Virus record (IMG/VR): IMGVR_UViG_3300031159_000070
Location: 73,048-137,047 of that record
Source: a virus
Direction: 5' to 3' (one strand)
Length of the DNA stretch: 64,000 bases
The notes under the pieces are model-generated. The model had not been told where the DNA came from. It worked only from the letters and a program-made list of their open reading frames with translations, and ran no database searches. The first letter of the stretch is position 1. Every line of letters starts with the position of its first letter. Position numbers and translations under genes: made by a program. Shown here piece by piece: positions 11,010 through 33,309 of this stretch.

Positions 11010-11123
11010 TCCGAGTCTCGTGCGGCAACCAGCCGTTCTTACCGACTTTGCACTGAATTTGCCGGACGTCGAGGCGTCCATCAAGGCTGGCTCGATCCTG
11101 GTCGGGCCTTCACGGAGATCGTC

Positions 11124-12068: not shown

Positions 12069-12091
12069 TCTTCATCAGAAAGGATAAGGTC

Positions 12092-12982: not shown

Positions 12983-12985
12983 TTC

Positions 12986-13396: not shown

Positions 13397-13404
13397 GTTC
13401 CTGC

Positions 13405-16400: not shown

Positions 16401-19400
16401 GCCATACGCTCCGTTCCGTCAGGTGGGTGAAGGCGTTGACGAGTGGCCGGTCTACGATCCGTCGTCCGGCGAGATGCTGGTCGGTCCGCCGAAAGCCCAT
16501 CCCATCATTGTCCTTGGCCGCGAGCAGCGTGCGATCGATCCGACGGATGCGGCATCGGCTCCGCTGTTCCGTCGGGCGCTGGGCACGCTCATCAATCGGT
16601 CCGGCCGTGCTCAGCCGTTGACGAATGAGATCGCCAAAGAGGCTGAGGAGATCGGCAATCGCTACGTCAAAGGCTTTTCTCTCGAGCGGTTCCTGCGCCG
16701 GCTCGATGCCGGCAATCTCTCGAAAGCGGATCGCTTTCTGCCTGAGCCGCGCGCCGACATCGTGCGCAAGGTGCGCGAGCTGATCGATGTCGATATGGAG
16801 CAATTCGGCGATGCCGCCGGGCCGCTCGGGCATGCGCTGCTGAAGAAGGATCCGGTGGCGTTCGCGCGCATGGTCTCGCAGCTGTCGGACGCGCGCATGA
16901 GCCAATACTTCCTCGACCGCGGCTATGATGCGACGCGCGCCGCAGTGGAGGGCGCGGAGCTCCAGCGTGGTGCCCGGCTGTTCGCTGAGCTGGTCGATGG
17001 CATCACCAAGGGCAAGGCGCGCGTCAAGTTCTACGACCTCGCCAACGTGGATGGAGCGCTCAGAACCTATCGTGGCAGAGAGCATCTGGCGCAGGCCTTT
17101 GAGGCTTGGTTCGCGCTGGAGTACAGCCCGAACCCGACCTGGCGCCGGATGATCGATCACATGATGCCTGGGCTGGACGAGGTGATGCGTCGGGTGCTGA
17201 GGGCGCGCTCGCGCGAGGCGTTCCCGGACGTGTGGGCGCCGACGCTGCGCATGGCCCACAACCGGCGCATCGTGGCCGATCCGCGCGCCATCGATGTCGA
17301 TCGTCTGACGTTTGAGCTGGAGGCGCCACCGGCCAGCATTGCCGCCGGCATACGCGAGAGCGTGCGGCAGCGGTTCTATGACTACCTCGAGGGCGAAGGG
17401 TCGCTCGCCAAGCGCGTTCACAACCAGATCGCCAAGGACCTCGGTATCTCGCGGCAGGATGTCGAGGTGCTGATCCGTGAAGCGCAGCGCGCGGGCTGGG
17501 TCAGGGCTCAGGGTCGCGGCTTCCGCGTGGTGCCGGCCGACAGGCGTCCGCCGCGCCCCGTCGGCACGCCGGCCATCTCCCCGACGCAGCATCAGCGCGA
17601 CCTATTCTACGACTATCTGGAAGGCAAGACCGGCGGCTCGGAGAAATCTCTCGGCTCGCTGAGCCAGGCTGCCTTGCGCGATCTGCAGCGCGAGATCGGC
17701 GCGACGCCGATACAGATGAGCCGCCTGACGTTTGAAGCGCAAGAGGTGGGCTGGCTCAAGCGCGATGCGCGCGGACAGCTCAGGCGCACATGGACCCGCG
17801 GTCTGGAGCGGACTGACAAGGCACCGCCGCCGCGGCCAAAGTCGCAAGATATCGAGCGGATCGAGGGGACACTTGGCACGCCTGCTGGTAGGATCGAACC
17901 GGCAGAGGCGCCGAAGCGACGGCGAGGTGACGATGGCGACTTTGGCGGAACTGGAGGCGCGGGAGAAGGACCTGCTGGGCCGGGCCCCCAAGGCGGAGGA
18001 CTATCCGAACCCGGAGGCCTTCGCGGAAGCGAGAGCGAGCTGGATCCGAACATACGGGCCAGCGCTGAGGATCCTCCGCTCAGAAATCTCCCGACGCAGA
18101 TCACAGTCCCGGGCCGCGGCAAGGTCACGTTCGGGCCGCTGAAGCAGGCGCGGCAAGCGGCAATCGACTACATGCGCGACGCGGGTCTGCCTTACAACCC
18201 GCCGCGCACCTACGTGAAAGTCGATCCGGCGCGTGCCAGGCGCATCGCCGAAGCCTATGAGGCGATGCCGCACAATCCCAACGATCCCGAGGTGAAGGCC
18301 GCCTTCAAGGCGATGATCGAGGAGACTCTGGCTCAGTATCAGTACATCAAGAAGACCGGTCTCAAGATCGAGATGATGGACCTCGATCAGCCCGACCCCT
18401 ATGCCGCTTCGCCGCGGCTCGCTCATCTCGACGTCATCGAGAACAACCACCTCTGGGTCTATCCGACGGACGCCGGCTTCGGATCGAATGCCGATTTCGA
18501 TGTCAGCGACAATCCGCTGATGCAGTTCACCGATGAGTACCTGAACGGCAAGCGCCTCAGGGCAAATGACGTGTTCCGCATCGTCCATGACTACTTCGGC
18601 CACTTCAAAGAGGGCGTCGGTTTCCGTGCAGATGGCGAGGAGAACGCGTGGCGCTCGCACAGCGCCATGTACTCGCCGCTCGCCCGGCGAGCGATGACGA
18701 CGGAGACGCGCGGACAGAACTCCTGGGTCAACTTTGGCCCGCACGGTGAGAAGAACCGCACGGCCAAGGCCGAAGATACGATCTTCGCCGACCAGAAAAC
18801 GGGCCTGCTCCCGCAATGGGTTGTTGACGAAGGCGCAGGCGATCCGCCGGACGTGACGCCCCCTGCGCAACCAGAGCCGACCCGAAACATTCTCGATCGG
18901 GCGCATCTCACAGAGCTTGTCCAGCGCATCGTCTCTGAAATGCGTGGTGTTCCGCTCGATCGCATCGCCCATCAGCGCCTCCCGGTGCGCACCGAGTCCG
19001 AACAGACGATGGTGAATGAGGTCTGGCGCCACGCCACGCTGTCGCCAGAGATCGAAAAGGTGATTTCAGGTGCCGAGTCCATCACGCTCTCTGAGCCGAC
19101 CGACGGGCCCACCTACTACGATCCTGTGACGGGAACGCTTGAGATCGGCCGGCGCAATCCTTCGGCGCCTCAGGACCGGGTCTGGATCCGCCACGAGTTC
19201 GGCCACCACCTCGACCTGCCGATGACGCCGGACGGAACGGTGGTGCAGTATTCGGCCGCGCCAGAGTTCGGCCTGGCCAAAGCGATGCAGGCCGATCTCG
19301 AGCAGCTGGCGCGCAGCTACGCGCCTGATGCGAAGGTCGTCCTGCGTGCCGAGTCCGCGCTGCAGCGGTTCAAGGATCGTTACGGGATCGATCTTGCGAA

Positions 19401-19797
19401 AAACGTCTCTGATATTGGGCTTGCGCATCGCATGGCTGAATACGCGTTGACCGGCAATGCGGCGTTCCTGAAGCTGGTTGACCAGGCCGTGCGGACTGGT
19501 GCGATCAGAGACGCCAAGATCGCCAGCGAGTTCATGGTCTATTCAGACTTGACGGCTGCGGTGACAAAGCTCAAGCTTGGCACCGGCCATCCTGAGACGT
19601 ACTTCGCCGGTGGATTTGATATCGGCGAGGGTTACACGAGTCGTCATGCCAATGAGGCATTCGCCAACTGGTTCGCGCTGCATTCGAGCGATGTGACCGG
19701 TTGGCGCCTGCTTATGCAGCAGTATTTCCCGCGCGTCGTGGAGTCCAATGCGTCGATCCTGGATCGCATGGGAGCCGATGCGCATGGCGAACAGTGA
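13405..19797 (+). CDS. MuF (phage Mu gpF / SPP1 gp7-like) minor head protein fused to ADP-ribosyltransferase-like, wHTH, HDYFGH and zincin domains
   Basis: LVRTSVNH..FVAVLDNRTTPRCRSLSG..PPLHVNCRSTLV (MuF); VYR..FLSGT..EAHELVLPAG (ART-like); HEFGH..EAFA (zincin). Confidence 0.9.
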   Translation: MPDTRLDELVKHRIGLERYQTSILRQVIPVLHDAEQDLVQIIREKLFDPRLTLSEARRLETTLRMVRKAQLEAYEVIFKRLWSEYRGLSAHEADWAKSYYRDLFAVQHSIEVPSASMLVAAALERPMSGRHLKAWADKMTAEHIAEVERQIRLGVIEGESIDQMVRRLRGTEAFRFRDGVTAKQRRSLEALVRTSVNHITNAAHLSFLQQNPEVFKKVQFVAVLDNRTTPRCRSLSGQIFDVDKAPVPPLHVNCRSTLVGLPTAPDGTPAAEPLADVSYEEWLREQPVAVQEDVLGVAKAKLFRIGDLKLDRFVDHTGKELTLDQLKRQERAAWERTFLTAEDRRAMSVIRRVNSLVNRAPEDLRPLAEIGQRAWQFLRFHSSQWLEAVATQWSRPVDPELVSLVFLLDFFDGPVTVQLYRSSAFWRSIIRRGLRPRPALVYPHTRMPRGLIVHPTVRRVRGELFPPPGRSRSPVPVGPRPRPGEGIIIDIDPTRPPQPPTPRPIVPPRRPDSIIIPPGRRGPATRRPPADMPVPPPRAPVPTERLPHVMRVIPDKGAEAIIPKIADDVQSLPPPSPVRVLPSPQPSQLPARVPALTNNLPAPKNPLRITVPELEAELDRLLPKEGARFNVEDALRNLWNAFKQRGHDGFEILDSQGVPRVRIGINEDQLTTFLDRWRAARAAFDQAQRPLLPAPPARPALPGAARVADRIEVRPGAQAPNVIHLPYRPPPHPLPPHGVPGDLAAVAKNQLGNGIRAIEDLPKPRARRRVPLAPRIAARRAREAEARRLVAEQQIRDLLAELNEINAGLEGLRPISRQLQARADVLQRLTLQNRLETDVTVYRPVRWANFAERMGPSPARLDKVIFESPSFLSGTGNEITAFEAGARFGKGPLVVMRINLKKGDVALAGNREAHELVLPAGSRLKVTAVRRMRASEIPADLRNLYPQNQEFWLADIEMVRPGDPVDRAITAARTTQQRYVDRMLRTPLDNEAEQAMRRTPYAPFRQVGEGVDEWPVYDPSSGEMLVGPPKAHPIIVLGREQRAIDPTDAASAPLFRRALGTLINRSGRAQPLTNEIAKEAEEIGNRYVKGFSLERFLRRLDAGNLSKADRFLPEPRADIVRKVRELIDVDMEQFGDAAGPLGHALLKKDPVAFARMVSQLSDARMSQYFLDRGYDATRAAVEGAELQRGARLFAELVDGITKGKARVKFYDLANVDGALRTYRGREHLAQAFEAWFALEYSPNPTWRRMIDHMMPGLDEVMRRVLRARSREAFPDVWAPTLRMAHNRRIVADPRAIDVDRLTFELEAPPASIAAGIRESVRQRFYDYLEGEGSLAKRVHNQIAKDLGISRQDVEVLIREAQRAGWVRAQGRGFRVVPADRRPPRPVGTPAISPTQHQRDLFYDYLEGKTGGSEKSLGSLSQAALRDLQREIGATPIQMSRLTFEAQEVGWLKRDARGQLRRTWTRGLERTDKAPPPRPKSQDIERIEGTLGTPAGRIEPAEAPKRRRGDDGDFGGTGGAGEGPAGPGPQGGGLSEPGGLRGSESELDPNIRASAEDPPLRNLPTQITVPGRGKVTFGPLKQARQAAIDYMRDAGLPYNPPRTYVKVDPARARRIAEAYEAMPHNPNDPEVKAAFKAMIEETLAQYQYIKKTGLKIEMMDLDQPDPYAASPRLAHLDVIENNHLWVYPTDAGFGSNADFDVSDNPLMQFTDEYLNGKRLRANDVFRIVHDYFGHFKEGVGFRADGEENAWRSHSAMYSPLARRAMTTETRGQNSWVNFGPHGEKNRTAKAEDTIFADQKTGLLPQWVVDEGAGDPPDVTPPAQPEPTRNILDRAHLTELVQRIVSEMRGVPLDRIAHQRLPVRTESEQTMVNEVWRHATLSPEIEKVISGAESITLSEPTDGPTYYDPVTGTLEIGRRNPSAPQDRVWIRHEFGHHLDLPMTPDGTVVQYSAAPEFGLAKAMQADLEQLARSYAPDAKVVLRAESALQRFKDRYGIDLAKNVSDIGLAHRMAEYALTGNAAFLKLVDQAVRTGAIRDAKIASEFMVYSDLTAAVTKLKLGTGHPETYFAGGFDIGEGYTSRHANEAFANWFALHSSDVTGWRLLMQQYFPRVVESNASILDRMGADAHGEQ
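17933..18142 (+). CDS. Putative overprinted (+1 frame) 69-aa gene nested in the MuF ORF
   Basis: GAGGTG SD then ATG; MATLAELEAREKDLLGRAPKAEDYPNPEAFAEARASWIRTYG; overlaps a Gly-rich linker of the main frame. Confidence 0.5.
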   Translation: MATLAELEAREKDLLGRAPKAEDYPNPEAFAEARASWIRTYGPALRILRSEISRRRSQSRAAARSRSGR

Positions 19798-20083
19798 GCT
19801 CACACCTGCTGCCATCAGTGTCCTGGCCGATGAACCATTTGCCAAGCGGATCGAGGACAACGGGCGGGTGCTGTCCGTTGATCTCTTCTTCGATGGCCCA
19901 GAATGCAAGGCGCGGCTCAAAGCCGGCAAGATCGACATCGTCTTGAGCGCCGGCGGCGCGGAGCGGCTGTCGCACGTGCTTTATGAGGCGGCGCGCACGG
20001 CAGAGCGCAAGATGCACTGGGCCAAAGTTCGCGGGCTTTCGCCGGCGCCTACCGCGAGTGCGCAAGCCGATCTTTTTGGTTGA
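19784..20083 (+). CDS. Hypothetical protein (possible immunity or partner of the MuF protein)
   Basis: Start overlaps the end of the MuF gene. Confidence 0.55.
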   Translation: MANSELTPAAISVLADEPFAKRIEDNGRVLSVDLFFDGPECKARLKAGKIDIVLSAGGAERLSHVLYEAARTAERKMHWAKVRGLSPAPTASAQADLFG

Positions 20084-20111
20084 AACAAATCAAAAAGCAC
20101 TGAGCCGGCTG

Positions 20112-20321
20112 ATGTCCAAAGACAACTACGAGATCTTCCAGGATCTTCCTTGCGACAGGACGCTTCACGTCGTGCCGCTTGGCGATCTTCGCGAGCACGA
20201 GACAGAGCGCACGTGCTGGTGCCGACCGCGTCTCGAGATCGAGGGAGCCTATTGGATCCTCGTGCACAACAGCCTCGACGGCCGCGAGGCATTCGAGGAA
20301 GGCAGGAGAAAACCGTCGTGA
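20112..20321 (+). CDS. Small His/Cys phage protein
   Basis: HVVPLGDLREH..CWCRP..LVHNSLDGRE motif. Confidence 0.6.
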   Translation: MSKDNYEIFQDLPCDRTLHVVPLGDLREHETERTCWCRPRLEIEGAYWILVHNSLDGREAFEEGRRKPS

Positions 20322-20590
20322 CACTCACCATCTGTTGTCCCGCTTGCGGCTGGACGGGGTCAAAAGAAGATCCACATGAAATCCTTCATAAGGTCCTGGA
20401 TGAGCCGAAGCTCTCAGGAAAAGATGACCTCGCCTACCAACCCATTCGCTGCGGTGCCTGCGGACACGAGTTCTATCCGCTGGCAATTATAGGCGGCAAG
20501 CTCACCAGTCACTTCTTCGACGAAAACGGAAAGCGCTGGGAAGGCGATCAGAAGCATTTCTGGTGGAATCCGAATCCTGCCAATGCCTGA
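20318..20590 (+). CDS. Zn-ribbon protein
   Basis: GTG start overlapping the previous stop; CPACG...CGACG. Confidence 0.55.
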   Translation: MTLTICCPACGWTGSKEDPHEILHKVLDEPKLSGKDDLAYQPIRCGACGHEFYPLAIIGGKLTSHFFDENGKRWEGDQKHFWWNPNPANA

Positions 20591-20804
20591 CCCTGTTTTT
20601 GATCACGGTCCCCTCAAGGATGATTGGGACCGTTATGCAGAGTTGTTCGGCCCGTTGCCGTTTCACGTTCACAAACTCGAGTCCAAAACACTGCGTGCGC
20701 TAGCAGATCTGATCTCAGCTGCAGTTGCGCGCGGCTCCCCAATCACAAAGTCCGAACTTGACGGGATCGGCTACGAGCACCCGCACCCTGGGCTTTTCCA
20801 CTGA
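20583..20804 (+). CDS. Small hypothetical protein (candidate immunity protein)
   Basis: Overlapping start; Y..LFG..P...ISAAV..G.P pattern. Confidence 0.5.
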   Translation: MPDPVFDHGPLKDDWDRYAELFGPLPFHVHKLESKTLRALADLISAAVARGSPITKSELDGIGYEHPHPGLFH

Positions 20805-20823
20805 ACTCAAGAGGGCACTGGCT

Positions 20824-21261
20824 ATGAGCAAGTCGAACGCCTTTGAAACGGCGCTGCTGAAGCTGATTTTCCAGAATACCGACATCACCAACCTTGGCGA
20901 TGCGAATGGAGTTCTTGGCAGCGATACCGCCGGCAATCTCTATGTCAGCTTGCATACCGGTGATCCCGGCGAGAGTGGTAATCAGGAAACCAATGAGGCT
21001 GACTATACCGGTTACGAGCGTGTCGCTGTGGTCCGATCTGCTTCGGGATGGACGGTGAACGGGAACGCGGTCAATCCGGCTGCCAATATCGATTTTCCGC
21101 AGTGTACCGGTGGCACCAATACCATCACGCATTTTGGTGTCGGCACGGCAGCAAGCGGTACTGGTATGCTGCTCTACAAGGGAACAGTCACCCCGAACAT
21201 CAATGTCAGCGAGGGCGTGACGCCAAGGCTGACTACCGACACGAATATCACCGAGGACTGA
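20824..21261 (+). CDS. Small beta-rich virion structural protein (fibre/appendage subunit family)
   Basis: MSKSNAFETALLKLIF..LYVSLHTGDPGE..EADYTGYERVAV..IDFPQCTGG..ITHFGVG..LLYKG motif of phage structural proteins. Confidence 0.75.
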   Translation: MSKSNAFETALLKLIFQNTDITNLGDANGVLGSDTAGNLYVSLHTGDPGESGNQETNEADYTGYERVAVVRSASGWTVNGNAVNPAANIDFPQCTGGTNTITHFGVGTAASGTGMLLYKGTVTPNINVSEGVTPRLTTDTNITED

Positions 21262-21287
21262 TCGGTTCGATTCCGTCGGGATCGAAC

Positions 21288-21319
21288 GGGGACCGCCTAG
21301 TGCGGTCCCTTTCTTTTTT
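21288..21319 (+). terminator. Intrinsic terminator
   Basis: gggaccgc-ctagt-gcggtccc followed by TTTCTTTTTT. Confidence 0.75.
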
Positions 21320-21329
21320 GGGGTTCGCG

Positions 21330-22016
21330 ATGGGAAAGCTTTTCGATCTTGTGCGCGTCGTGACGAGCACGACCGGGCAGGGGACCATAACGCTTGGGCC
21401 GGCGGTTGATGGATTCCTGACGTTCGCCGAAGCCGGTGTGCAGAATGGCGACGTCGTCTCTTATGGCCTGCGCACTCTCGATGGTCAGCACGCCGAGGTC
21501 GGCGAGGGCACCTATTCCTCGAGCGGGCCGACGATGACGCGATCCGTCTCGGCTTCGACAAATGGCGGAGATCCCATCGACCTCGATGGACCAGCGGTCA
21601 TCTTCATCACGCCGAGAGCCGTCGATTTTCTGCTGGCCGCCGTCGCGGCCGATTTTCGTGTCGGCACTGCGCTCAACAAGGCGCTCACGCCGAAGGCGGT
21701 TTGGGACGGCGCCGAATACGTCTCGCTGACGGATGCGAGCACGATTGCCGTCGACATGAGCGCCGGCTTCAATTTCCAGGTCACACTCGGCGGCAACCGG
21801 ACATTAGGCAATCCGACGAGCGCCAAGCCTGGTCAATCCGGCGTGATCAAGATCAATACCAACGGCAGCAACCGCACTTTGGCATTCGGCTCCAACTGGA
21901 AAGCGGCTGGCGGCGAGGCGCCGGATATCTCTGATACCGACACGATCGATCTGCTGTTCTACCACGTCGTCGAATCCGATTTCATCGTTTACTCCCTGCT
22001 GACGGACGTGAGCTGA
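21330..22016 (+). CDS. Virion fibre/adaptor protein
   Basis: LVRVVTSTTGQGTITLG..EVGEGTY N-domain; C-domain (TLGGNRTLGNPT..FGSNW..GGEAPD) paralogous to 41707..42831. Confidence 0.7.
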   Translation: MGKLFDLVRVVTSTTGQGTITLGPAVDGFLTFAEAGVQNGDVVSYGLRTLDGQHAEVGEGTYSSSGPTMTRSVSASTNGGDPIDLDGPAVIFITPRAVDFLLAAVAADFRVGTALNKALTPKAVWDGAEYVSLTDASTIAVDMSAGFNFQVTLGGNRTLGNPTSAKPGQSGVIKINTNGSNRTLAFGSNWKAAGGEAPDISDTDTIDLLFYHVVESDFIVYSLLTDVS

Positions 22017-22060
22017 TGATCCTGGCTGCAACAGCCGGATAAGTCGCCGAGGGCGCGGCC

Positions 22061-25000
22061 GTGGCCAATAAGCCAACCGATATCCACTATGAAGGCCAGA
22101 TTCTTTTCGGATCTGTCGGGCAGTTCGGTCTTGGTGACCCAGGGTTTCCCCGGGGCAGCGCTGTTGGAACCGCCGCCGGCTCATCATCTGCATCTGGTGG
22201 CGGTGGCCGGCTTACCGCACCACTTCTCCCTGTCCATCTCGTCGGGCATGTACTTTTCGGCGCGATAGGACAGTTCGGGCTTGGGGATGCGGGCGATCTC
22301 AATCCGATCGTTGAAGCCGCTGGCTCCGCATCGGCCAGCGCTGAAGCCAACGCGTCAGCGACCACCGTTCTCTCATCGACCGCCTCGGCTGTCGGTTCGG
22401 CAACCAGCACAGGTGCTGGAACCGGCATATTCGATGCGGCGGCCAGCGCCGATGGTGACGCGCAAGCATCGGCGACTGGCCTTGGTTTGGCGGTCGTCGC
22501 GGCAGTAGGCAGCGCATCAGGAACTTCGCAAGCAACGAGTGCGAGTGTTGCGACTGCTGCAGCCTCCGGCAGCTCATCCTCGCTCGCAGAGCTTGTCGCA
22601 GTTGGTGCTGCGACCTCGGCCGCGGCAGCTTCGAGCTCTGCCGCAGCTACAGCTGCCGCCATTGGCGCTGCTGCGGTTCAAGCTATCGGTGTAAGCACTG
22701 GATCTTCTGCAGCCGAAGGAACGTCAGCGCCCGTTGCTGCTGGAGCCGGCGAGAGCGCTGCATCTGCTGCTGTTGCCGGCTCGCTTCACGCACGAGCCGA
22801 TGCGACTGGCTCGGTTTCAGGAACGTCAACCGCATCAGCTGCGGCGTTGCTGACAGCTGCGGCGACTGGCGCGAGTTCCGCAGCAGGCAGCGCAACAGCT
22901 GCCGGGCGAGAAGTTGCCCTCCAGACGCGCGTTGACCGCGAGGGCCACGTTCTCTTCGGTGCGCTGGGCCAGTTCGGGCTTGGTGATGCCGGCGAGATCC
23001 CCGGTATCCTGCTTGCTTCGGCCGGAATCAGCGCTGGCGTAGCGGCGGCAGATGCAATCGGGCGGTCAATCGCAACCGCTGCCGGATCGGCTGTCGCCAC
23101 CTCCACCGCCGCCGCGTTTGGTATCGGCGAGATCGGCACGTCCGGAACCGTTGCCGGACAGAGCACCGCTGCGGGCGTTGGCAGCGCCATTGCTGCTGCT
23201 GCTGGATCCGTTGTCGACGCGAGCGGTTCCGCTGACGGCCATGCACTTTCACAAGCTTCCGGCGTCGGTGTTGCTATCGGCAACGCGTCGGCCAGCGCCG
23301 TCGGCAGATCAACATCTGATGCCGCTGGCACTTCTGCAGCCGTTGCTTCCGCGGTCGCGGCCGGTGCAAGCATCATTGACTCGTCAGGCGTTGCTGCGGC
23401 TGCCGCGACAGCTGCCGCGCAAGGTGCCGCCACTGCAGCCCGCGCTGGGATTGTTTCGTGTTCTGCTGCTGTCAGCGGGAACACTGCTGCCACCGCATCG
23501 GCCTCAGGCAACGCATCGGCCGAGACAACCGCTCTTGCTGATGGCGCCTCTACGAGCGAGGCAGCTGGCAGCACATCCGCCACGGCCGATGCGGACGGGC
23601 GCGGTCGAGCTGTCGCCCCACTGAGGCCCGTTGACCGCGAAGGTCACGTTCTCTTCGGTGCGCTGGGTCAGTTCGGACTTGGCGATGCTGGCGATAATCT
23701 TACTGGCACCGTTCAGGCCGTGGGCTCGAGTAGTGGTGCGGCGCAGACATCTGCGATTGGCGCGTCCACTGCAGCAGCGGATGGCGTTGCAGCTGCTGTC
23801 GCCAGTACGAGCGGCGTTGCGTCAACGATCGCTGCCGCGTCCGGTCAGTGCCAGGCGCAGAGCGGCGTCGCCGGTGCTGGCTCGACGGTCATCAACGCAA
23901 GCGGCTCTGCTGAAGCTGCGTCCGGCGCTGAGGGGCGCGGCGCATCCATAAGCGCAGCCGCGGCCACGGCGGCAGGCGCAAGCACGACCAGCGCGAAAGG
24001 CGCATCGCGGTTTTCGGCTTATGGCCTTATCATCGCCATGGCCGCCGCGCTCGCGCTGTGGATTGCTACCCACAGCAGTATCGGCCTGTCCGTTTCTGGT
24101 GCTTCTGCTGCAGCCCGTGGGGCTTCCATCGCGGCAAGCGCAGGGCAGGCGAGTGGCACCAGTGCTGTCGATGGTGGCGGTGCATCAACGCATGCCGCAT
24201 CTGGGTCAAGCGCCGGCGCAGCCACAGCATCTGCCGAGTCGGCGCTGACCGGCGAAGCGAGCGGTCTGGCGCAAGGTCTTGCAGCCGTCGAAGGTGTCGG
24301 TCAGTCGACCGCGGCAAGCGCGGGTGCTGCTGGCGGTGATGCCGCGAGCCAGGCTGTTCTGGCAGCGACTGCCAGCGCAGTCGGATCGGCGCAAGGAACC
24401 GCGAACGCTGCAGCCGACGGCGCCAGTTCCGCTGCCGGCGTCGGTACAGCGATTGGCCAGAGCGAGGTTGCCGGCGAGGCCAGATCGTCTGCTGCATCGG
24501 CCGGATCCTCCCCTGGCCTTGCAACCGTCGAAGGCACTGGCGCGGCCACAGCCGCTGCTGTCGGTGTGTCGGATGCTATTGCATCCGTGTCGGCCGGCTT
24601 CTCGGCCACCGACGCTGGCGTCGGCGCGGTTGCCGGTGTTGCAACGGCGGCGGCGAAGGCCGAAGCGACCGCTGCCGGGACAGGCAAGGCCGAAGGATCG
24701 GTTGCTGTCCTGGGCGCTGGAACCGGCATCGCCCCGGCCGCTGGCAGTGGCGATGGTGCTGCAGAGGCCGCAGCTGCTGGCGAAGCCGCGGCGATCACTG
24801 TCGGCGAGACGGCCGGCTCGAGCACTGTTGCTGGAACCGGCGCTGCCACCGCGGAAGGCTCCGGTTCCGCGATCGGCACCAGCGTTGTCAGCGGCGGCGC
24901 AAGTGCGACAGCTGCCGGCGTCGGACAGGTTGCTTGCGTCGCAACGTCGGAAAGCACCGGAGCTCCGATAGCGGCTGCTGCTGGTGGCGTGTCAGGCGAT

Positions 25001-26362
25001 GCCATCGTTGATGGTCAGAGTCTGCCGCTTGTCACCCTCTCCGGCGACGGTCTTGCCGAGGGCTCTGCGACCGCTAACGGCGTCGTCGCCGCAACGCATG
25101 CATCCGCCGCCGAAGCCGTAGCCGCATCGCTTGTTTCAGCTGTTGGCGCTGCGACGGCTCAAGCCCGTGGGTCCGTCGAGGCGAGCTCGAGCGTCGCCGG
25201 CGTTGTCTTCTCGACAGCAGCCGCGACCGGTGCGGCGGCGGGCAGCTCGACTGCCGATGCGGAAGCTGCTTGGACGGCAGCTGCTGCCGGCGACGCGGAT
25301 GCCAGCGCTTCTATCAGTGGTGATGCGGAATCAACCGCCGCAGCTGCCGGTCGGTCCGAAAACCTGGCCGCGGTTGATGGGCGAGCTGCGGCCCGTGCTG
25401 ATGCTGCAGGTGTCGGTGCCGGCGTCGCTACTGCCGATGGCGCACTTCGCGCGGATGCGTTTGCTGCAGGCTTTGGCCAAGGCGAAGCGGCAGCGGCGGC
25501 GCAAGGAGCGGCGGCGGCGGCTGCTGCCGGGGAGGTCTCCGCCAGCGCGAGCGTGGCAGGCGCAGGCGCTTCGACGGCAGCTGCTGTTGCGGAGAGTGCC
25601 GGCGCTGTTGCAGTCGAGGGCAGTGCTGCAGCCACTGCCGCTACCGTTGCAACGGCCGAAGCTGTTGCCGATGCTCATGCGACCGGTGCTGCGACGGCGA
25701 GCGCAGCTGGTGTTGCTGCTGGTGAGGCGAGCGCTGTCGCCGATGCCCGAAAGCTCCTGTCGGGCGCCGGCGCGAGCGAGGGCCAGGCGAGCGCAAGTGC
25801 CCACGGCGTTGCGCTACGCATGGGAGCGGGCGCTGCGGTCGGCGAGGCCTCCGCGGCTGCGACGGGCCGGGCGACGCATTCGGCTGTTGCGGCTGCGTCC
25901 GGTTCCGCAGAAGTCGCGGCACAGCACGATTCGATCCTGTGGTGGGAAGGCCTGGCCTCGGGCCACGCCACCGCCGCCGGCGTCGGTAAGGCGCTGCATC
26001 AGCTCAACATCCAGTCCGATCACTGGCCTGCAGCGGCGCTCGCCGTGTCCGCGGAGCCCGCCGCTGAGATCGACGTGGTTGCGCAGGCGCCGGTCGCAAT
26101 TGCTGTAAGTGTGCGTGGCGAGGCACCACCAAAGACAGCGAAGTCTCGCAAGCTGCATGTTGCCACGCGCGTGATGTCGCTGAGCGAAGTCGAAGTCTCA
26201 CACGATAGTGCGATGGAAATGTCGGTCTCGAGCGGCCCGGCGGTGATCATCTCGACGCTTGTTCTCGAGCTGGTCGAGACGGGGTCGAGCAACGGACCCG
26301 AGATCGACACCGATGCATCTCATGGGCCGAAGGCAAGAATTGCAACCCGAGCGAGGTCGTGA
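22061..26362 (+). CDS. 1433-aa Ala/Gly/Ser-rich repetitive protein (filament or scaffold-like)
   Basis: Long A-x-G-x-S-x-A-type repeats; four GxxLFGxxGQFGLGDxG motifs. Confidence 0.75.
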   Translation: MANKPTDIHYEGQILFGSVGQFGLGDPGFPRGSAVGTAAGSSSASGGGGRLTAPLLPVHLVGHVLFGAIGQFGLGDAGDLNPIVEAAGSASASAEANASATTVLSSTASAVGSATSTGAGTGIFDAAASADGDAQASATGLGLAVVAAVGSASGTSQATSASVATAAASGSSSSLAELVAVGAATSAAAASSSAAATAAAIGAAAVQAIGVSTGSSAAEGTSAPVAAGAGESAASAAVAGSLHARADATGSVSGTSTASAAALLTAAATGASSAAGSATAAGREVALQTRVDREGHVLFGALGQFGLGDAGEIPGILLASAGISAGVAAADAIGRSIATAAGSAVATSTAAAFGIGEIGTSGTVAGQSTAAGVGSAIAAAAGSVVDASGSADGHALSQASGVGVAIGNASASAVGRSTSDAAGTSAAVASAVAAGASIIDSSGVAAAAATAAAQGAATAARAGIVSCSAAVSGNTAATASASGNASAETTALADGASTSEAAGSTSATADADGRGRAVAPLRPVDREGHVLFGALGQFGLGDAGDNLTGTVQAVGSSSGAAQTSAIGASTAAADGVAAAVASTSGVASTIAAASGQCQAQSGVAGAGSTVINASGSAEAASGAEGRGASISAAAATAAGASTTSAKGASRFSAYGLIIAMAAALALWIATHSSIGLSVSGASAAARGASIAASAGQASGTSAVDGGGASTHAASGSSAGAATASAESALTGEASGLAQGLAAVEGVGQSTAASAGAAGGDAASQAVLAATASAVGSAQGTANAAADGASSAAGVGTAIGQSEVAGEARSSAASAGSSPGLATVEGTGAATAAAVGVSDAIASVSAGFSATDAGVGAVAGVATAAAKAEATAAGTGKAEGSVAVLGAGTGIAPAAGSGDGAAEAAAAGEAAAITVGETAGSSTVAGTGAATAEGSGSAIGTSVVSGGASATAAGVGQVACVATSESTGAPIAAAAGGVSGDAIVDGQSLPLVTLSGDGLAEGSATANGVVAATHASAAEAVAASLVSAVGAATAQARGSVEASSSVAGVVFSTAAATGAAAGSSTADAEAAWTAAAAGDADASASISGDAESTAAAAGRSENLAAVDGRAAARADAAGVGAGVATADGALRADAFAAGFGQGEAAAAAQGAAAAAAAGEVSASASVAGAGASTAAAVAESAGAVAVEGSAAATAATVATAEAVADAHATGAATASAAGVAAGEASAVADARKLLSGAGASEGQASASAHGVALRMGAGAAVGEASAAATGRATHSAVAAASGSAEVAAQHDSILWWEGLASGHATAAGVGKALHQLNIQSDHWPAAALAVSAEPAAEIDVVAQAPVAIAVSVRGEAPPKTAKSRKLHVATRVMSLSEVEVSHDSAMEMSVSSGPAVIISTLVLELVETGSSNGPEIDTDASHGPKARIATRARS

Positions 26363-27655: not shown

Positions 27656-27801
27656 GAATGCCCATCCCGGGTGCCAAAGCATAGGGTTCTAGTCTAGGAG
27701 CACTAGACCGCTCAGTCGAGCAACTATTCGGGCTTTCCACTGCCGACTTCTCGTCATAGTATTGATCTACGGAGACCGGTTATCGAATGTAGGTGTTCGC
27801 C

Positions 27802-28188
27802 ATGATTGATCGTCGCTCGTTTCTCACTGCAGGCGCTGCGCTTCTGCCGGCCTCCTGGCTCACTCCTGCACGTGGCGCTGAGACGCTCGCCGGCGAGCCG
27901 ATCATCGGCACATATGCCATCACCCTGCCGCGCGACGGCGTTTACCGGGTGATGGCGGACGGCATCTGGGCCAAAGATCCGACAGAGCTGTCGATGTTTC
28001 TGACGCGCGGCTCTGACATCAGCATGATCGCGGCTGCGGTTCGCGCGCCGCGGCCGGGCGAGGGCGGCGAGCTGGTGCTGGCGACGCGCATCGATGCCAA
28101 GGCACACGATCGCATCTCGATCGAGGTCTCGAGCGATACCAACTCGATGCCGCGGCTTGCCGCGATGCCTCTCATCTTCTACGCGTAA
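27802..28188 (+). CDS. Tat-exported small protein
   Basis: MIDRRSFLTAGAALL..ARGA twin-arginine signal. Confidence 0.65.
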   Translation: MIDRRSFLTAGAALLPASWLTPARGAETLAGEPIIGTYAITLPRDGVYRVMADGIWAKDPTELSMFLTRGSDISMIAAAVRAPRPGEGGELVLATRIDAKAHDRISIEVSSDTNSMPRLAAMPLIFYA

Positions 28189-28204
28189 ATCTGTCTAGCG
28201 TCAC

Positions 28205-28254
28205 TTGACCTGAATCTGCGTCGGGCATAGCGTCACCTCTACAGGAGGTGGCGC
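28205..28254 (+). promoter_or_regulatory. Sigma70-like promoter overlapping an SD-sequestering hairpin
   Basis: TTGACC-N17-TAGCGT; gcgtcacctc/gaggtggcgc stem covers AGGAGG. Confidence 0.5.
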
Positions 28255-28554
28255 ATGAATGCTTTGGAGCAACATCTAAAGCCCGATCAGCTGTTGCGGC
28301 TGCGATGTCTCGAGCTGGCGCTCAACAACCGGCACGCGTTCTCCGATGGAGAGCGACGATCGTTCACGGAATGGGCTGATCTCTTCCAGCAGTTCGTCAT
28401 GACCGGCGTGCCCTTCACGGATAATCCGTGGATCACGGGGAACGTCACCCGCCAGCATGAAATCATGCAGAAGAACCCAGAGCTTGCCAGGAAGCTCATT
28501 GCCGAAGTGAGCGAGGCTCGCGGCGAAAACTCAGCACCAGCAACCCAGGAGTAG
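28255..28554 (+). CDS. Small protein with a scaffold-like C-terminal motif
   Basis: Strong SD; NPWITGNVTRQHEIMQKNPELARKL resembles the scaffold C-terminus. Confidence 0.7.
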   Translation: MNALEQHLKPDQLLRLRCLELALNNRHAFSDGERRSFTEWADLFQQFVMTGVPFTDNPWITGNVTRQHEIMQKNPELARKLIAEVSEARGENSAPATQE

Positions 28555-28558
28555 TGAC

Positions 28559-28783
28559 ATGCCTGTGCAGATTCGCATGGATCATACCGGTGACACCCGC
28601 TTTACGTTCGATGCTGCCGATGAGGCGGCTGTCGCCGAAGCCGAGGCCCGTTTCAAGGAGCTGACCGGAAAGGGCTTCCGCGCCGCAGCCTTGGGTGAGA
28701 GCGGTGAGCCTGGACGTCTGCTCAAGGAGTTCGATCCGACCGTCGAGCGCACGCTCTTCATTCCGGCTCTGCAGGGCGGCTAG
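28559..28783 (+). CDS. 74-aa protein ending in di-glycine (ubiquitin/ThiS-like C-terminus)
   Basis: SD AGGAG; ends TLFIPALQGG-stop. Confidence 0.7.
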   Translation: MPVQIRMDHTGDTRFTFDAADEAAVAEAEARFKELTGKGFRAAALGESGEPGRLLKEFDPTVERTLFIPALQGG

Positions 28784-28786
28784 TCC

Positions 28787-29432
28787 ATGTGGCCACCAGA
28801 GGGGATCAATGATCTCCAGTATCTGGAAAGGGAGATCGAGCGGGCCGCGACGCGATCTCCAGTACATGGGCATGCAGGTGGTCGTGGATGCTGCGGATCA
28901 GGCCGACAACACTGGCTTGATGGGCTTACGCATCGATCGGGCTCTTCTCGATCCTGTAGACAGCGATGTCGGGATCGGCCTCTGTGCTCCCAATTTCGAG
29001 GCGGAGCTGGCTGAACACGCGCGGCGTATCTCGCAGGCCGACGTCGTTATCGACCGCTACAATGATTTCGGGGGCGACAAGAAGGCCAGCGAGAAGTCCA
29101 TCAAGCTGCTCAAGGAAAACCTGACGCCCAAGCAGCTCGAAACCTATGAGAAACATCGCTGGTTCGAGGTGAAGGGCGGCGACACCGGCCGGACCTACCG
29201 CATCTATCACCGCCGGCAAATGAACGTCTCGGTGCGCAACTGGCGCGGCAAGCACAAACACGGGCTCTGCTTCCTGCCCACCGGCGGCCTCGCCATTGGA
29301 GATATCCTGCTCGGACAGAAGATCGCGCTCGAGCTCTACGAGCACGATGCCCTCAAGGTCGCCAACCGGTTCGATCATGACCCTGGCATTTGGGTCACGC
29401 CCTTCGAAACTTCTTTCGAAGAAGTGGTCTAG
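28787..29432 (+). CDS. Cys-containing partner protein (apparent frameshift near 28850; alternative start 28866)
   Basis: LLKENLTPKQLE..FEVKGGDTGRTYRI..N..GLCFLP.G.L..GDILLGQKIALE..E..ALKVANRF. Confidence 0.6.
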
Positions 29433-29489
29433 TGACGCTTGACGTCTCCGCTGGCTGACCTTACACGTGATTCTGCCACGAGCGAGCGG

Positions 29490-29564
29490 TGTGGGGTGGA
29501 GCAGTGGTAGCTCGCTGGTCTCATACGCCAGAGGTCGTCGGTTCGAATCCGACCCCCGCAACCA
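29490..29564 (+). tRNA. tRNA-Met (CAT), initiator-like body with an altered anticodon stem
   Basis: Cloverleaf TGTGGGG..CCCCGCA-A-CCA, D arm GAGC/GCTC, anticodon loop CTCATAC, GTTCGAATC T-loop; TTGACG-N17-TACACG upstream. Confidence 0.9.
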
Positions 29565-29657: not shown

Positions 29658-30092
29658 ATGTTCAAGAGCGCAGCATACCCCGATACTCCGCTCGATCACT
29701 CCAAATCGCGCGATTTCATGCGCACCAACCTCGGCCTTTCGCCAGTACAGGATTCGCTCGAACTGAATGGCGAGGCGGCAACCGACGTCACGCTCGAAGC
29801 CTATCAGACGACGCTCGTCTCGGCAGACGCTGGCGCCCAATACAATCTGCCGGATGGCGAATACGTTGGCCAGCGCAAGCTGCTGAAGGCCGATGTCTCC
29901 GACGCAGGAACATGCGTCGCTTCCGACGCGGCCAAGGCGAAATTGATCGTCAATGGACTCCATGGCCAATCGGCAGCGAACGTCACTGCGCTCACCTTCG
30001 ATGCCGATGGCGAACTCGCTCTCCTCGAGTGGACAGGCGCGAAATGGAATGTCGTCTACGCAACCGCTACGGTCACGGATGATTCGGTATAG
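29658..30092 (+). CDS. Beta-rich virion (head decoration/fibre-like) protein
   Basis: SD GGAGG; YNLPDG..GQRK..LTFDADGELALLEWTGAKWNVV pattern. Confidence 0.55.
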   Translation: MFKSAAYPDTPLDHSKSRDFMRTNLGLSPVQDSLELNGEAATDVTLEAYQTTLVSADAGAQYNLPDGEYVGQRKLLKADVSDAGTCVASDAAKAKLIVNGLHGQSAANVTALTFDADGELALLEWTGAKWNVVYATATVTDDSV

Positions 30093-30112
30093 CGCGCGGC
30101 AAGACCAATTTG

Positions 30113-30145
30113 AACGGGCACCTTCGGGTGCCCGTTGTATTTTGA
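30113..30145 (+). terminator. Intrinsic terminator
   Basis: aacgggcacc-ttcg-ggtgcccgtt followed by a T-rich tail. Confidence 0.75.
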
Positions 30146-30269
30146 TTGCAAATCAGCAACACCTTTGCACCTTTCAGAAAAAAATCTTGACAGGCGCATT
30201 TTTGCTGGTTGACGCAAGAGCCAATTTGGTCTAGCACCACGATACCATCGGCTCATTGCGAGCGATGAG

Positions 30270-30338
30270 CTATGGGCCCTCCTTGGGCGTTGTTTCCTCC
30301 CTAGACTTGGGCCGTTCGGAAATCCGGACGGCCTTTTT
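30270..30338 (+). ncRNA. suhB/MmgR (alpha-r8)-like small RNA
   Basis: CTCCTTGGGCGTTGTTTCCTCCCTAGACTTGGGCCG core, then ggccgttcgg/ccggacggcc terminator and T run; TTGAC boxes upstream. Confidence 0.75.
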
Positions 30339-30466
30339 CGTTGGGGGATCGTTCAGTACGGCGAAGGCGGGGTGCCTGCGCTTTGCGATTGTCCTGAGAT
30401 GTGCTGCTCAATACGCCCACTCGATTTTGGAGTGCGGCAGGTCACGGCTTTCCGAAAAAGCAGCGC

Positions 30467-30703
30467 TCAGGGTCGTCGATCGATGCGGGACCATTTGGGC
30501 TCGTCGAGACCTCGCTCGACGCGCCGCATCTTCGTCTTTACCGCCGCAAACGAGCGGTGGTCTGAGGGTGAGCTCGGCGTAAAAACGATCGTCCTGTGCC
30601 GAGGATGCGTCAGCCTGTAATGCTGATTCTTGGTCTGCTCGATATCCCAGCCACGCTTCTTCGCGTAGCTCAATAGCTCGCGGCGGTAGTGTGCGGGGTT
30701 CAT
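30467..30703 (-). CDS. HicA-like (dsRBD-fold) toxin
   Basis: RELLSYAKKRGWDIEQTKNQHYRLTHP..IVFTPSSPSDHRS..KMRR. Confidence 0.65.
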   Translation of the reverse strand: MNPAHYRRELLSYAKKRGWDIEQTKNQHYRLTHPRHRTIVFTPSSPSDHRSFAAVKTKMRRVERGLDEPKWSRIDRRP

Positions 30704-30713
30704 GGGCGTCTCC

Positions 30714-31067
30714 TCAGGCGGCACGCTTGATGGAGACTTGCTGAAGCTGCCACTGCAGAATGATCTTTTCGCGCAGCCACGCTCGAAAAAGAGCTTCATG
30801 CAGCGGTTTCGAGTAGGACCAGTGTCCATTCACTCCCATCTGTCGCGCGCGGCTGCAGGCGACCTCGAGCTTTAGGATAAGTGCTCGCGTATTGTGGATC
30901 GCGGCCTTGGCATCGACCAGGAGATGCGCGGCTGGATCAACGAGCATATTCGGATCGTCAATGATCGGCGCCCATTTCGGAATGTCGCGACGATCATAAC
31001 TGCCGATCTTCGCACGTAAATCAGCACAGCTTTGTTGCCAGGATTTGACGTCCTGCAGCTCGATCAT
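30714..31067 (-). CDS. Hypothetical protein
   Basis: SD AAGGAG; GHWSYS..LHEALFRAWLRE. Confidence 0.6.
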   Translation of the reverse strand: MIELQDVKSWQQSCADLRAKIGSYDRRDIPKWAPIIDDPNMLVDPAAHLLVDAKAAIHNTRALILKLEVACSRARQMGVNGHWSYSKPLHEALFRAWLREKIILQWQLQQVSIKRAA

Positions 31068-31242
31068 GGTGGTCTCCTTGGGGCTCGCGTCCGGGTCGGG
31101 CAGGCGGTAGTCTCACGCCACTTGCCATCATGCGTCTAGTATAACTGGTCTTGATGCCGTCCAGCAAGGATCAGTCCAGCTCTCCACAGCTGGGTCAGTC
31201 GGGCGCCGTTCGCCTTCGTCCGTAATCGATCAGAGTGCCGGG

Positions 31243-31338
31243 CCGGCGCGATGCCGGGTCGGATCACCTCAACTGCCAGCTTGTCTGCCGGCGCGATGCC
31301 GGTCGAGAGCCGAGGCCAACCGCGGGCGCGATGCCTGC
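31243..31338 (+). promoter_or_regulatory. Three GCGAT-loop hairpins in the scaffold leader
   Basis: ccggc-GCGAT-gccgg twice and gcgggc-GCGAT-gcctgc, then GAGGA SD. Confidence 0.7.
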
Positions 31339-31351
31339 ATTGAGGATTGTG

Positions 31352-32224
31352 ATGTTCGACTTTCCACTGACCGTCAAATCAATCGACGAAGTTCCCGAAG
31401 AGTACCGCATCCTTTACGAGCTGAATGACGACGGCGAGGGCGCGACGCTCATCGCTAGTCTGAAGCAGCGCATAGAGGGTGTCGGTCCTGCCGGACAACG
31501 CGCTCTGCAGGAAGAGCGCAAGGCCCGGGCTGCTGCCGAAAAAGCCGCGAAGGCTTGGAAGGAGGCGGCCGGTGTCGAAACTCCGGAAGAGCTCACTGCC
31601 AAATTCGAGGAAATCGAATCCGAGTGGCAGCAGAAGCTCGAGGAAGCGCAGGCCACTAAAGGCGGCGACAAGGACGAAGATCTGAACAAGCGATTGCAGC
31701 AGGTCAGATCCGAAGTCGAGCGCGAGTGGAGCAAAAAGCTCGATCGGGAAATTGCCGAGCGCAAGAAGGCCGAGGAAGAGCGCGACCAGATGTTCAAAGA
31801 CATGCAAAGGAACATGCTGGAGCGCGAAGCCATGGAGGCCATCGCAGCGCACAAGGGCAAGCCTACGCTGCTCAGGCGCGAGGTTATGGCCCAGCTCAAA
31901 CTCGCCAAGACGGACGCCGGCTGGAAGGTCCGCGTCGTCGATGAAGATGGCGATGAGCGCTACGACGGCGATGGAAAGCCGATGACGGTCCACAACCTCG
32001 TGGCACTGATGCGCCAGTCCGATGACTACGCGGCTGCTTTTGAGGGCGATGGCGCCACTGGAAGCGGTTCACGGTCGCCGGCCGGCGGCACGAAGATCTC
32101 CTCAAAAACCAACCCCTGGTCCAAAGCGACGTTCAACGCAACGGAGCAGGCCAAAATCCTGAAGTCGAATCCTCAGCTCGCCAAGCAACTGCAGGCGCAG
32201 GCTGAGGCCGAGGCTCGCAGGTAA
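31352..32224 (+). CDS. Capsid scaffolding protein
   Basis: VKSIDEVPEEYRILY N-terminus, coiled coil, GSGS linker, NPW C-terminal helix; directly upstream of the capsid gene. Confidence 0.85.
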   Translation: MFDFPLTVKSIDEVPEEYRILYELNDDGEGATLIASLKQRIEGVGPAGQRALQEERKARAAAEKAAKAWKEAAGVETPEELTAKFEEIESEWQQKLEEAQATKGGDKDEDLNKRLQQVRSEVEREWSKKLDREIAERKKAEEERDQMFKDMQRNMLEREAMEAIAAHKGKPTLLRREVMAQLKLAKTDAGWKVRVVDEDGDERYDGDGKPMTVHNLVALMRQSDDYAAAFEGDGATGSGSRSPAGGTKISSKTNPWSKATFNATEQAKILKSNPQLAKQLQAQAEAEARR

Positions 32225-32343: not shown

Positions 32344-33309
32344 ATGACTGAGACTCGCCTTGCAGACGTTATCGTTCCCGAGCATTTCAATCAGTATTCG
32401 ATGCAACTTACCACCGAGTTGTCTCGATTCCGGCGCTCTGGGCTTGTGGTCGACTTCTCCGCGGAGCTTGGCTCCCAGATGGGCGGCACGACCGTCAACA
32501 TGCCGTACTTCAACGATCTGGAGGGTGACGACGACGTCGTCGACGACACCCAGGATCTCGAGCTCAACAAGATCACGACCGGGCAGGATGTTGCGGTCAA
32601 GCTGTACCGCGCCAAGGCTTTCGGTGCAACCGACCTGTCCGGCGATCTCGCCGGCGCCGATCCTGTCAAGGCGATCGCCACGCGCTTTGCCGAGTGGTGG
32701 ATCCGCAAGGAGCAGGAGGTTCTGATCTCGGTCTGTCAGGGCGCGCTCGGTTCGGCGCTGATGACCGATAACGTCCTCGATATTTCAAACCTCGAGGGCG
32801 CTGCCGCAAACTTCGATCCCTACAGCTTCATCGATGCGCAGGCGCGTCTCGGTGACCACCAGGATCTTCTGTCTGGCATTGCCTGCCACAGCAAGACCTA
32901 CACGGCCATGAAGAAGGCTGATCTCATCGAGGAGATCCGGCCGTCGGATGGCGGTGATCCCATTCCGACCTACATGGGCAAGGTCCTGATCGTCGATGAC
33001 AAGATGCCTTATTCTGAGGGCGTCTATACGACCTTCATCTTCGGCCAGGGCGCCATCGGCTACGTCTCCGCAAGCCCGAAGGTTCCCGTCGAGGTCGGTC
33101 GCGAGCCTCTGAAGGGCGGTGGCCAGGACTATATCGTCCAGCGCCGCTTCTTCGTCATGCACCCGCGCGGCGTGCGCTGGTCTCCGCAGCCTGGCGTCCC
33201 GGCGAGAGCGACGCCCACCAACGCCGAGCTGGCCAATACGGCCAACTGGCAGCGCTGCTATGACCCGAAGAACATCCGGATCGTGATGTTCAAGCACAAG
33301 GTCGGCTAA
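32344..33309 (+). CDS. Major capsid protein
   Basis: TRLADVIVPEHF..GGTTVNMPYFNDL..AGADP..IPTYMGKVLIVDD..MHPRG..PTNAELA..NW.R.YDPKNI. Confidence 0.92.
   Translation: MTETRLADVIVPEHFNQYSMQLTTELSRFRRSGLVVDFSAELGSQMGGTTVNMPYFNDLEGDDDVVDDTQDLELNKITTGQDVAVKLYRAKAFGATDLSGDLAGADPVKAIATRFAEWWIRKEQEVLISVCQGALGSALMTDNVLDISNLEGAAANFDPYSFIDAQARLGDHQDLLSGIACHSKTYTAMKKADLIEEIRPSDGGDPIPTYMGKVLIVDDKMPYSEGVYTTFIFGQGAIGYVSASPKVPVEVGREPLKGGGQDYIVQRRFFVMHPRGVRWSPQPGVPARATPTNAELANTANWQRCYDPKNIRIVMFKHKVG

Follow-up and report, generated by a model that had tools for sequence, protein, structure and literature searches.

This study concerns a small gene at positions 28255 to 28554 of a 64,000-nucleotide stretch of viral DNA, which is referred to as the window and covers positions 73,048 to 137,047 of the IMG/VR record IMGVR_UViG_3300031159_000070. 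It makes up the right-hand end (64 kb) of this provirus record of 137 kb, and nearly all of its genes lie on the + strand. The phage is a temperate myovirus of roughly 130 kb with an SPP1-type head module. The small gene encodes a protein of 99 amino acids, which carries at its C-terminal end a copy of the tail module of SPP1-type head scaffolding proteins, which also ends the scaffold of this phage. The gene, its signals and the parts of its product are located as follows.

28193..28209, no strand assigned: 17-bp palindrome GTCTAGCGTCACTTGAC, operator-like, overlapping the −35-like TTGACC (28205-28210), 45 nucleotides before the ATG
28205..28233, + strand: candidate promoter read from the sequence (TTGACC, spacer of 17 nucleotides, TAGCGT), which a consensus scan did not report
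28243..28248, + strand: ribosome-binding site AGGAGG, 6 nucleotides 5' of the ATG
28255..28554, + strand, stop codon included: gene of the 99-amino-acid accessory protein, from the open reading frame (ORF) and its translation
28255..28410, + strand: N-terminal domain (N-domain), residues 1-52, predicted helical hairpin, delimited by stand-alone homologues without the tail module (P0002 and P0009) and by an AlphaFold2 (AF2) model
28414..28521, + strand: scaffold-tail module, residues 54-89 (NPW-x2-GN-x-T-x-Q, helix, NP, helix LA[RK]xLxA)
28559..28783, + strand: next gene, 74 amino acids, product ending in Gly-Gly, starting 5 nucleotides past the stop of the small gene

The ORF 28255-28554 is a real gene, and both the gene and its homology are solid. 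It looks like a real gene because it is preceded by the AGGAGG site and has a coding-like GC content at the third codon position. The GC contents at the first, second and third codon positions are 0.62, 0.39 and 0.71 for the small gene and 0.66, 0.41 and 0.73 for the scaffold gene, and the capsid protein gene is alike. The exact 99-amino-acid protein is recorded from 5 contigs, and identical contigs covering 28255-28554 are present in two further sequencing runs. The phage contigs in four DNA runs are all identical copies, with no divergent one among them that would yield a ratio of nonsynonymous to synonymous substitution rates. The 74-amino-acid gene is probably co-transcribed with the small gene.

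The tail of the small protein is compared with that of the scaffold, which is encoded next to the presumed docking partner.

31352..32224, + strand: head scaffolding protein, 290 amino acids from ATG 31352 (phrog_206, E 4.3e-25)
32108..32221, + strand: C-terminal module of the scaffold itself
32344..33309, + strand: major capsid protein of the SPP1 gp13 type, the presumed docking partner (phrog_247, E 9e-103; PF20036)

These family matches bear out the identification of both genes in the first-pass annotation, which was made from the sequence without database searches. The scaffold is 27% identical to SPP1 gp11 over 212 aligned positions that reach the C-terminus (E 5e-11), and the capsid protein shares 45% identity with SPP1 gp13 along its full length. 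The scaffold start needs correction, because the phrog match begins at residue 41 and hairpin repeats fill 31242-31337, so that ATG 31352 is more likely than GTG 31235. The repeats make up the leader of the scaffold-capsid operon, where a 16-mer that can form a hairpin, GCCGGCGCGATGCCGG, occurs three times, once at 88%.

Residues 50-89 of the small protein align by BLASTP with residues 286-328 of the scaffold (window 32090-32218; core from 32108). Of 43 positions, 18 are identical, 27 are positive and 3 are gaps, with an E value of 1e-6 for this single comparison. When the 1,211 six-frame ORFs of at least 30 amino acids in the window are compared, the two tails are each other's sole match (E 5.8e-5 and 3.4e-5), and the runner-up has an E value of at least 1.5. 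A hidden Markov model (HMM) of the motif finds exactly two carriers in the whole 137-kb record. An HMM built from the scaffold tails of nine other phages detects the small protein with an E value of 1.3e-8 among 3,823 ORFs, the next non-scaffold ORF having an E value of 3. For the N-terminal half of the small protein, the best match within the record has an E value of 0.5 and no paralogue is present, and the N-domain shows no similarity to the resident scaffold. The two observations from which the first-pass annotation started, that the small protein carries the C-terminal motif of the scaffold and that its N-terminal half is unrelated, are thus both upheld.

The small protein conforms to the pattern NP[WF], 4-6 residues, N-x-T-x-Q, about 6 residues, NP-x-[LK]A-[KR]-x-[LM]-x-A. 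In an alignment of 10 rows, its residues Q67, P75 and L77 vary little or not at all. Residue 89 of 99 is the last of the module, which thus lies no more than about 15 residues from the C-terminus, and the scaffolds of LR1, 9g, NP1 and PhiJL001 have comparable short extensions past it. The rest of the small protein is not a scaffold body, since it has no match to any Pfam or PHROG family at E <= 0.01 and none to PF06810, PF14265 or phrog_206. Its gene is not placed like a scaffold gene, immediately upstream of the major capsid gene, either. It lies 3.8 kb 5' of the capsid gene, and five ORFs, a tRNA gene, two terminator-like hairpins and the real scaffold gene lie between them.

The module is found at scaffold ends in other phages as well. 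When 50,697 phage records are searched with the small protein by tblastn, all eight matches at E <= 1 lie inside annotated scaffold genes, those of SPP1 and its Bacillus relatives and of Lactobacillus phage LR1. Two of these records were inspected, and the match falls at the very C-terminus of both SPP1 gp11 and the LR1 scaffold. All 2,308 six-frame ORFs of 15 phages with a capsid protein matching that of the window were also scanned with the motif HMM. The module is detected at E < 1e-3 in 10 of these 15 gp13-type phages (8 of 13 without the two training sequences). Each of the ten matches is the end of the ORF directly 5' of the capsid gene, and no other ORF gives a match at E < 1. Judged from these comparisons, the motif is the extreme C-terminal helix-NP-helix module of scaffolds that are paired with capsid proteins of the SPP1 gp13 type. 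It is more widespread than the first-pass annotation recognised, whose assignment of the motif to a scaffold C-terminus is supported.

The bodies that bear this module differ. That of SPP1 gp11 is PF06810, those of LR1 and phiFL3A are PF14265, and those of the window scaffold and its BDU-MI-1 counterpart have no Pfam match. The Pfam models stop short of the module, PF06810 at residue 171 of 214 of gp11 and PF14265 at residue 159 of the LR1 scaffold. The scaffold of 80alpha has a PF14265 body, ends in a helix-and-hook with RIIK and gives no match to the module HMM; the 80alpha capsid protein has no BLASTP similarity to that of the window. The tail is shared by differing bodies and is lacking in 80alpha, and it therefore follows the head or capsid type, not the scaffold body. 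When a profile of the motif alignment is searched, 116 of the 120 matches listed carry PF14265, and scaffolds of Limosilactobacillus dominate. The same profile gives one chance-level match to PDB chains (E 0.15), and no PDB chain with the module is found; the scaffold matches only apolipoprotein-like coiled coils in the PDB. Searches of the openly readable literature return no description of the tail motif or of a non-scaffold protein carrying it. The module itself, for which there is no Pfam model, and its use on a non-scaffold protein inside a phage are new here.

The small protein has very few relatives. A phmmer search of 1.84 billion representatives yields five proteins (P0001-P0005). P0001 has 98 amino acids and is 81% identical to the small protein over the full length, with residues 53-75 identical. 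The motif is thus kept in the sole full-length homologue. P0002 and its cluster mate P0009, each of 65 amino acids, consist of the N-domain only. P0003, P0004 and P0005 match through the tail alone, and P0005 is a shortened call of a scaffold-like protein of 244 amino acids, P0010. Scaffold-like P0003 has two tandem tail modules and P0004 has three, indicating that the module can multiply within one protein. A profile of the small-protein family finds this protein, P0001 and P0002 and nothing further. The fused form is therefore very rare. Searches for related loci with the small protein or its family alignment (viral, genome and metagenome contigs) and with P0010 and P0003 (viral contigs) find no relative. 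A degenerate DNA pattern for the NPW[IV]TGN.T subtype gives a single match in viral contigs, which is out of frame in a transposase-like ORF. Its homologues show that the small protein rarely occurs and joins a scaffold tail to a small domain that elsewhere exists by itself. That the tail of the resident scaffold was duplicated recently is ruled out by the identity of 14/31 and the indel that separate the two tails, and a remnant of a second scaffold gene is ruled out since the N-domain exists as a free protein. The module retains every family-conserved position despite its identity of 14/31 to the resident tail.

The promoter region of the small gene suggests when it is expressed. The palindrome GTC[T/A]AG-N5-CT[A/T]GAC has 26 sites with at most 2 mismatches in the 137-kb record, as compared with 4.55 expected (maximum 7 in 20 shuffles). 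Further copies in the window lie at 27692-27708 and 29427-29443. In the early region, copies lie just 5' of exonuclease VIII-like, ParB-like and phosphatase-like genes, and others flank a CI-like repressor gene (14881-15543 of the record) on either side. This distribution suggests that the palindrome may be a scattered repressor operator, of the kind used by phage P1. The palindrome over the promoter of the small gene also flanks the CI-like repressor gene, suggesting that the small gene is repressed in the lysogen and would be switched on with the lytic genes, as the promoter-proximal gene of its cassette. At the related locus L006, the palindrome lies directly 5' of the homologue of the 74-amino-acid gene, with no small ORF between. 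The 74-amino-acid gene and the gene following it form a two-gene cassette (28559-29432), which is inverted in L006 (4441-5958). The inverted repeat formed by 28193 and 29427 was considered as an invertase site and set aside, as both arms are copies of the record-wide palindrome. Recombination between these arms could have been the origin of the inverted cassette of L006.

In P22, the C-terminal element of the scaffold binds the coat protein. In 80alpha, the last 16-21 residues of the scaffold are located on the N-arm of the capsid protein, and CpmB of SaPI1 copies them and binds the same site (PMC5644958). The statement of the first-pass annotation that scaffold C-terminal helices bind coat protein is correct for these two phages, but it is not established for the SPP1-type scaffold. 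In SPP1, the gp13 substitutions Y18A, D109N and P110A give gp13 structures without gp11, according to PMC6813328. Residues Y18, D106 and P107 of the window capsid protein align with Y18, D109 and P110 of gp13, and all three are invariant in 50 homologues. We infer that this conserved capsid site and the conserved scaffold tail may fit together, although the portal and MuF-type genes are co-inherited with them.

In the AF2 model of the small protein, helices 10-24 and 37-50 of the N-domain form a helical hairpin with a predicted local distance difference test score (pLDDT) of 68-80 per 10-residue block. The module helices 64-73 and 75-88 flank Asn74-Pro75 and are predicted with low confidence, at a pLDDT of 54-65. 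Complex predictions for the capsid protein (alignment of 50 rows) and the small protein (10 rows) give scores of 0.48, 0.00 and 0.23; the median of 0.23, against a mark of 0.32 and without controls, counts neither for nor against binding. A comparison with the ESM Atlas gives no usable feature match, all structure rows having a template modelling (TM) score below 0.5.

From this pattern of similarity, we tentatively propose, at somewhat less than an even chance, that the small protein docks on the inner face of the procapsid by means of its scaffold-type tail and brings its N-domain into the head. The scaffold tail module would be the end that contacts the capsid protein, at a site formed by the N-arm and the spine helix and marked by Y18, D106 and P107. 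By making this contact too, the small protein would sit beside the scaffold on the inner face. The N-domain and any partner bound to it would thereby be brought into the assembling head, the tail serving as a natural address tag. Expression of the gene would begin along with that of the lytic genes. Clipping of the tag is not expected, because no head protease is detected by family matches among the ORFs tested between portal and neck. A bolder form of this proposal, which we consider unlikely, is that the SPP1-type scaffold tail is a portable label for the capsid interior, used here in a protease-free head. The N-domain would then enter the procapsid, stay in the virion, be delivered with the DNA and act early in the next cell, for example against host defence. 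As a corollary, the C-terminus and not the N-terminus of SPP1 gp11 would be the capsid-binding end.

Several points weigh against docking by the tail. The model of the SPP1 procapsid puts the N-terminal hook of gp11, not its C-terminus, on gp13; gp11 is untraceable in the low-resolution density, and the N-terminal helices of a PHYRE2 model were fitted (PMC6813328). Two of the 15 gp13-type phages, Javan128 and phiCD111, have no recognisable module, and three others (Eta, Shashou and Jersey) have a degenerate module only, by eye. The head genes are co-inherited, so that co-occurrence cannot separate the capsid protein, the portal and the gp7-like protein as the partner. The module is identical to the tail of its own scaffold at only 14/31 positions, with a 2-residue indel, which is no closer than to the tails of SPP1 (14/31) and LR1 (15/31), and its closest tail is that of the foreign scaffold P0005/P0010 (18/31, no indel). 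The mean pLDDT of the AF2 model is as low as 64. L006 and BDU-MI-1 are without the small gene over the syntenic stretch, L005 not covering the position, and the family consists of this protein and P0001 only; the small protein is therefore dispensable. Finally, a helical protein of 11 kDa could leave the head along with the scaffold.

It is also conceivable, with a low probability, that the small protein is a competitor at the capsid site of the scaffold. It would act either as a mini-scaffold in the manner of CpmB and P1 DarA/Hdf, influencing curvature, size or scaffold load, or as a decoy that poisons other gp13-type phages. Its build is like that of CpmB, which is likewise small and helical and joins an N-terminal domain to a copy of the scaffold tail (PMC5644958), and P1 DarA and Hdf are phage-borne proteins of the inner surface that affect head size (PMC12810830). 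The greater closeness of the module to foreign P0005/P0010 than to its own scaffold fits a target other than the resident capsid, and all family-conserved module positions are retained. However, the gene belongs to the phage itself, with structural operons on either side, and its surroundings show neither an integrase nor a hallmark of a satellite. BDU-MI-1 (121 kb) has the same capsid type without the gene, indicating that the gene is not needed for size determination. An exclusion decoy would have to be expressed in the lysogen, against which the palindrome at the promoter probably argues. The first-pass annotation had offered a cargo-loading peptide or an assembly mimic, possibly one that blocks superinfecting relatives. 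The motif on which it based both holds, whereas the superinfection-blocking variant is weakened by the palindrome, which points to repression in the lysogen.

Docking on a partner other than the capsid protein is rather improbable. According to this explanation, the module contacts the portal, a MuF/gp7-like protein, other scaffold molecules or a host factor, and the small protein is recruited to this partner or interferes with it. The assignment of the SPP1 capsid contact to the N-terminus of gp11 favors it, as does the proposal that SPP1 assembly begins with the association of portal and scaffold (PMC13212656 and PMC6316719). The portal, MuF-type protein, scaffold and capsid genes are co-inherited, and co-occurrence fits such a partner equally well. 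However, the conserved C-terminal element of the scaffold is the capsid binder in 80alpha and P22, the placement of the gp11 N-terminus is a fit of a fold-recognition model to density too poor to trace, and the invariant capsid residues match a similarly conserved scaffold element, of which the tail is the only one seen here. A chance recombination chimera, in which a stray fragment of a scaffold tail without a function of its own was left on a small gene, is very unlikely: the region is mosaic, with genes on both strands and two downstream genes inverted in L006, the family is tiny and homologues of the N-domain work without the tail, but the frame is intact over the full length of the 81%-identical homologue, which comes from other contigs, with residues 53-75 (including the first module helix) 100% conserved, the conserved positions are all kept in a tail too diverged from the resident one to be a fresh copy, and the gene has a strong ribosome-binding site and a coding-like composition.

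The proposed docking of the small protein on the capsid protein concerns a gene in the structural half of the phage, in a region that is syntenic with L006 and BDU-MI-1 except for the small gene. L006 has homologues of the flanking genes and no small ORF; BDU-MI-1 has small ORFs and a tRNA gene between portal and scaffold, and no second carrier of the motif. Two head genes lie farther upstream.

2570-4123: large terminase
4799-6373: portal

The portal and the scaffold are separated by about 20-22 kb of very large ORFs (6402-26362), where SPP1 has gene 7 and a few small ORFs only. One of them encodes a protein of 2,130 amino acids that has a Mu F domain (PF04233, E 3.5e-15) at its N-terminal end, and another encodes an Ala/Ser/Gly-rich protein of 1,433 amino acids. 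None of the large ORFs of this region contains the scaffold tail module. Past the large ORFs, the gene order is mosaic small genes, scaffold, capsid protein, adaptor, neck, baseplate and sheath. The 131-amino-acid ORF just 5' of the small gene (27793-28188) has, by eye, a twin-arginine-like start (RRSFL followed by a hydrophobic stretch), and over 121 residues it is 38% identical to its L006 homologue. A tRNA-Met gene (29490-29564) lies between the small-gene cassette and the scaffold, and Bradyrhizobium phage BDU-MI-1 has a tRNA-Asn gene at the corresponding place between portal and scaffold (L007 18708-18780). Just before the scaffold operon, two overlapping ORFs of the - strand (30467-31067) have homologues in L005 and L006; one of them shows a weak match to the HicA toxin (PF07927, E 0.0016, under the cut-off) and a match to phrog_2089 (E 4e-11). 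At 27722-27958, 30092-30565 and 32699-32935, matching contigs are far deeper than in the rest of the phage (up to 900 as compared with 2-7) in all four metagenome runs, and similar sequence is therefore present in abundant other organisms. The segment 30092-30565 overlaps two terminator-like hairpins and a stretch resembling a small RNA.

Proteins of this kind are already known, as represented by CpmB, the T4 targeting sequences and engineered P22 cargo. The capsid targeting sequences of phage T4 are short N-terminal peptides that send unrelated internal proteins into the prohead; they attach to the core of the scaffold, and the head protease removes them. The small protein instead has a C-terminal copy of a scaffold end, and no protease is found among the ORFs tested. 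In P22 loading, the cargo is fused to the C-terminal scaffold part that binds the capsid (a helix-turn-helix) and is built into the procapsid during assembly. P22 virus-like particles have been engineered and loaded in this way by fusions to the scaffold protein (PMC9962691); these are man-made, but in the small protein a scaffold-tail fusion would likewise serve as the tag. CpmB of SaPI1, like the small protein, is a small helical protein whose C-terminus copies a scaffold tail, that of 80alpha gp46 (PMC5644958). The likeness is one of kind only. The small protein has a tail of the scaffold family of its own phage, with a helix-NP-helix motif (NPW...N.T.Q...NP.LA) instead of the helix-and-hook with RIIK of CpmB and 80alpha. 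CpmB comes from a satellite and changes the size of the capsid, whereas the small gene lies inside the phage and is absent from relatives of similar genome size. DarA and Hdf of P1 are non-essential proteins that attach to the inner surface of the capsid, affect the formation of the head and bring in other proteins; DarA is a large protein that the head protease cuts and that remains in the virion (PMC12810830). SPP1 gp11 (PF06810) and other scaffolds of gp13-type phages have the same module as their C-terminal 35 residues. The small protein differs from them in having 99 amino acids, no scaffold body and a gene 3.8 kb 5' of the capsid gene.

Only two near-identical lineages are known to have the fused protein, whose docking is predicted from sequence similarity. 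If the module does dock on gp13-type capsids, the capsid-binding end of a very widespread type of scaffold, which occurs in phages of Bacillota, Pseudomonadota and cyanobacteria, would be identified, and a testable question mark would be put on the published SPP1 model. The 35-residue module would be a tag to try for the loading of SPP1-type capsids. The small protein would also be a precedent from nature, in a phage, for the use of a copied scaffold tail to load heads or to steer their assembly, for which the examples until now have been SaPI1 CpmB and engineered P22.

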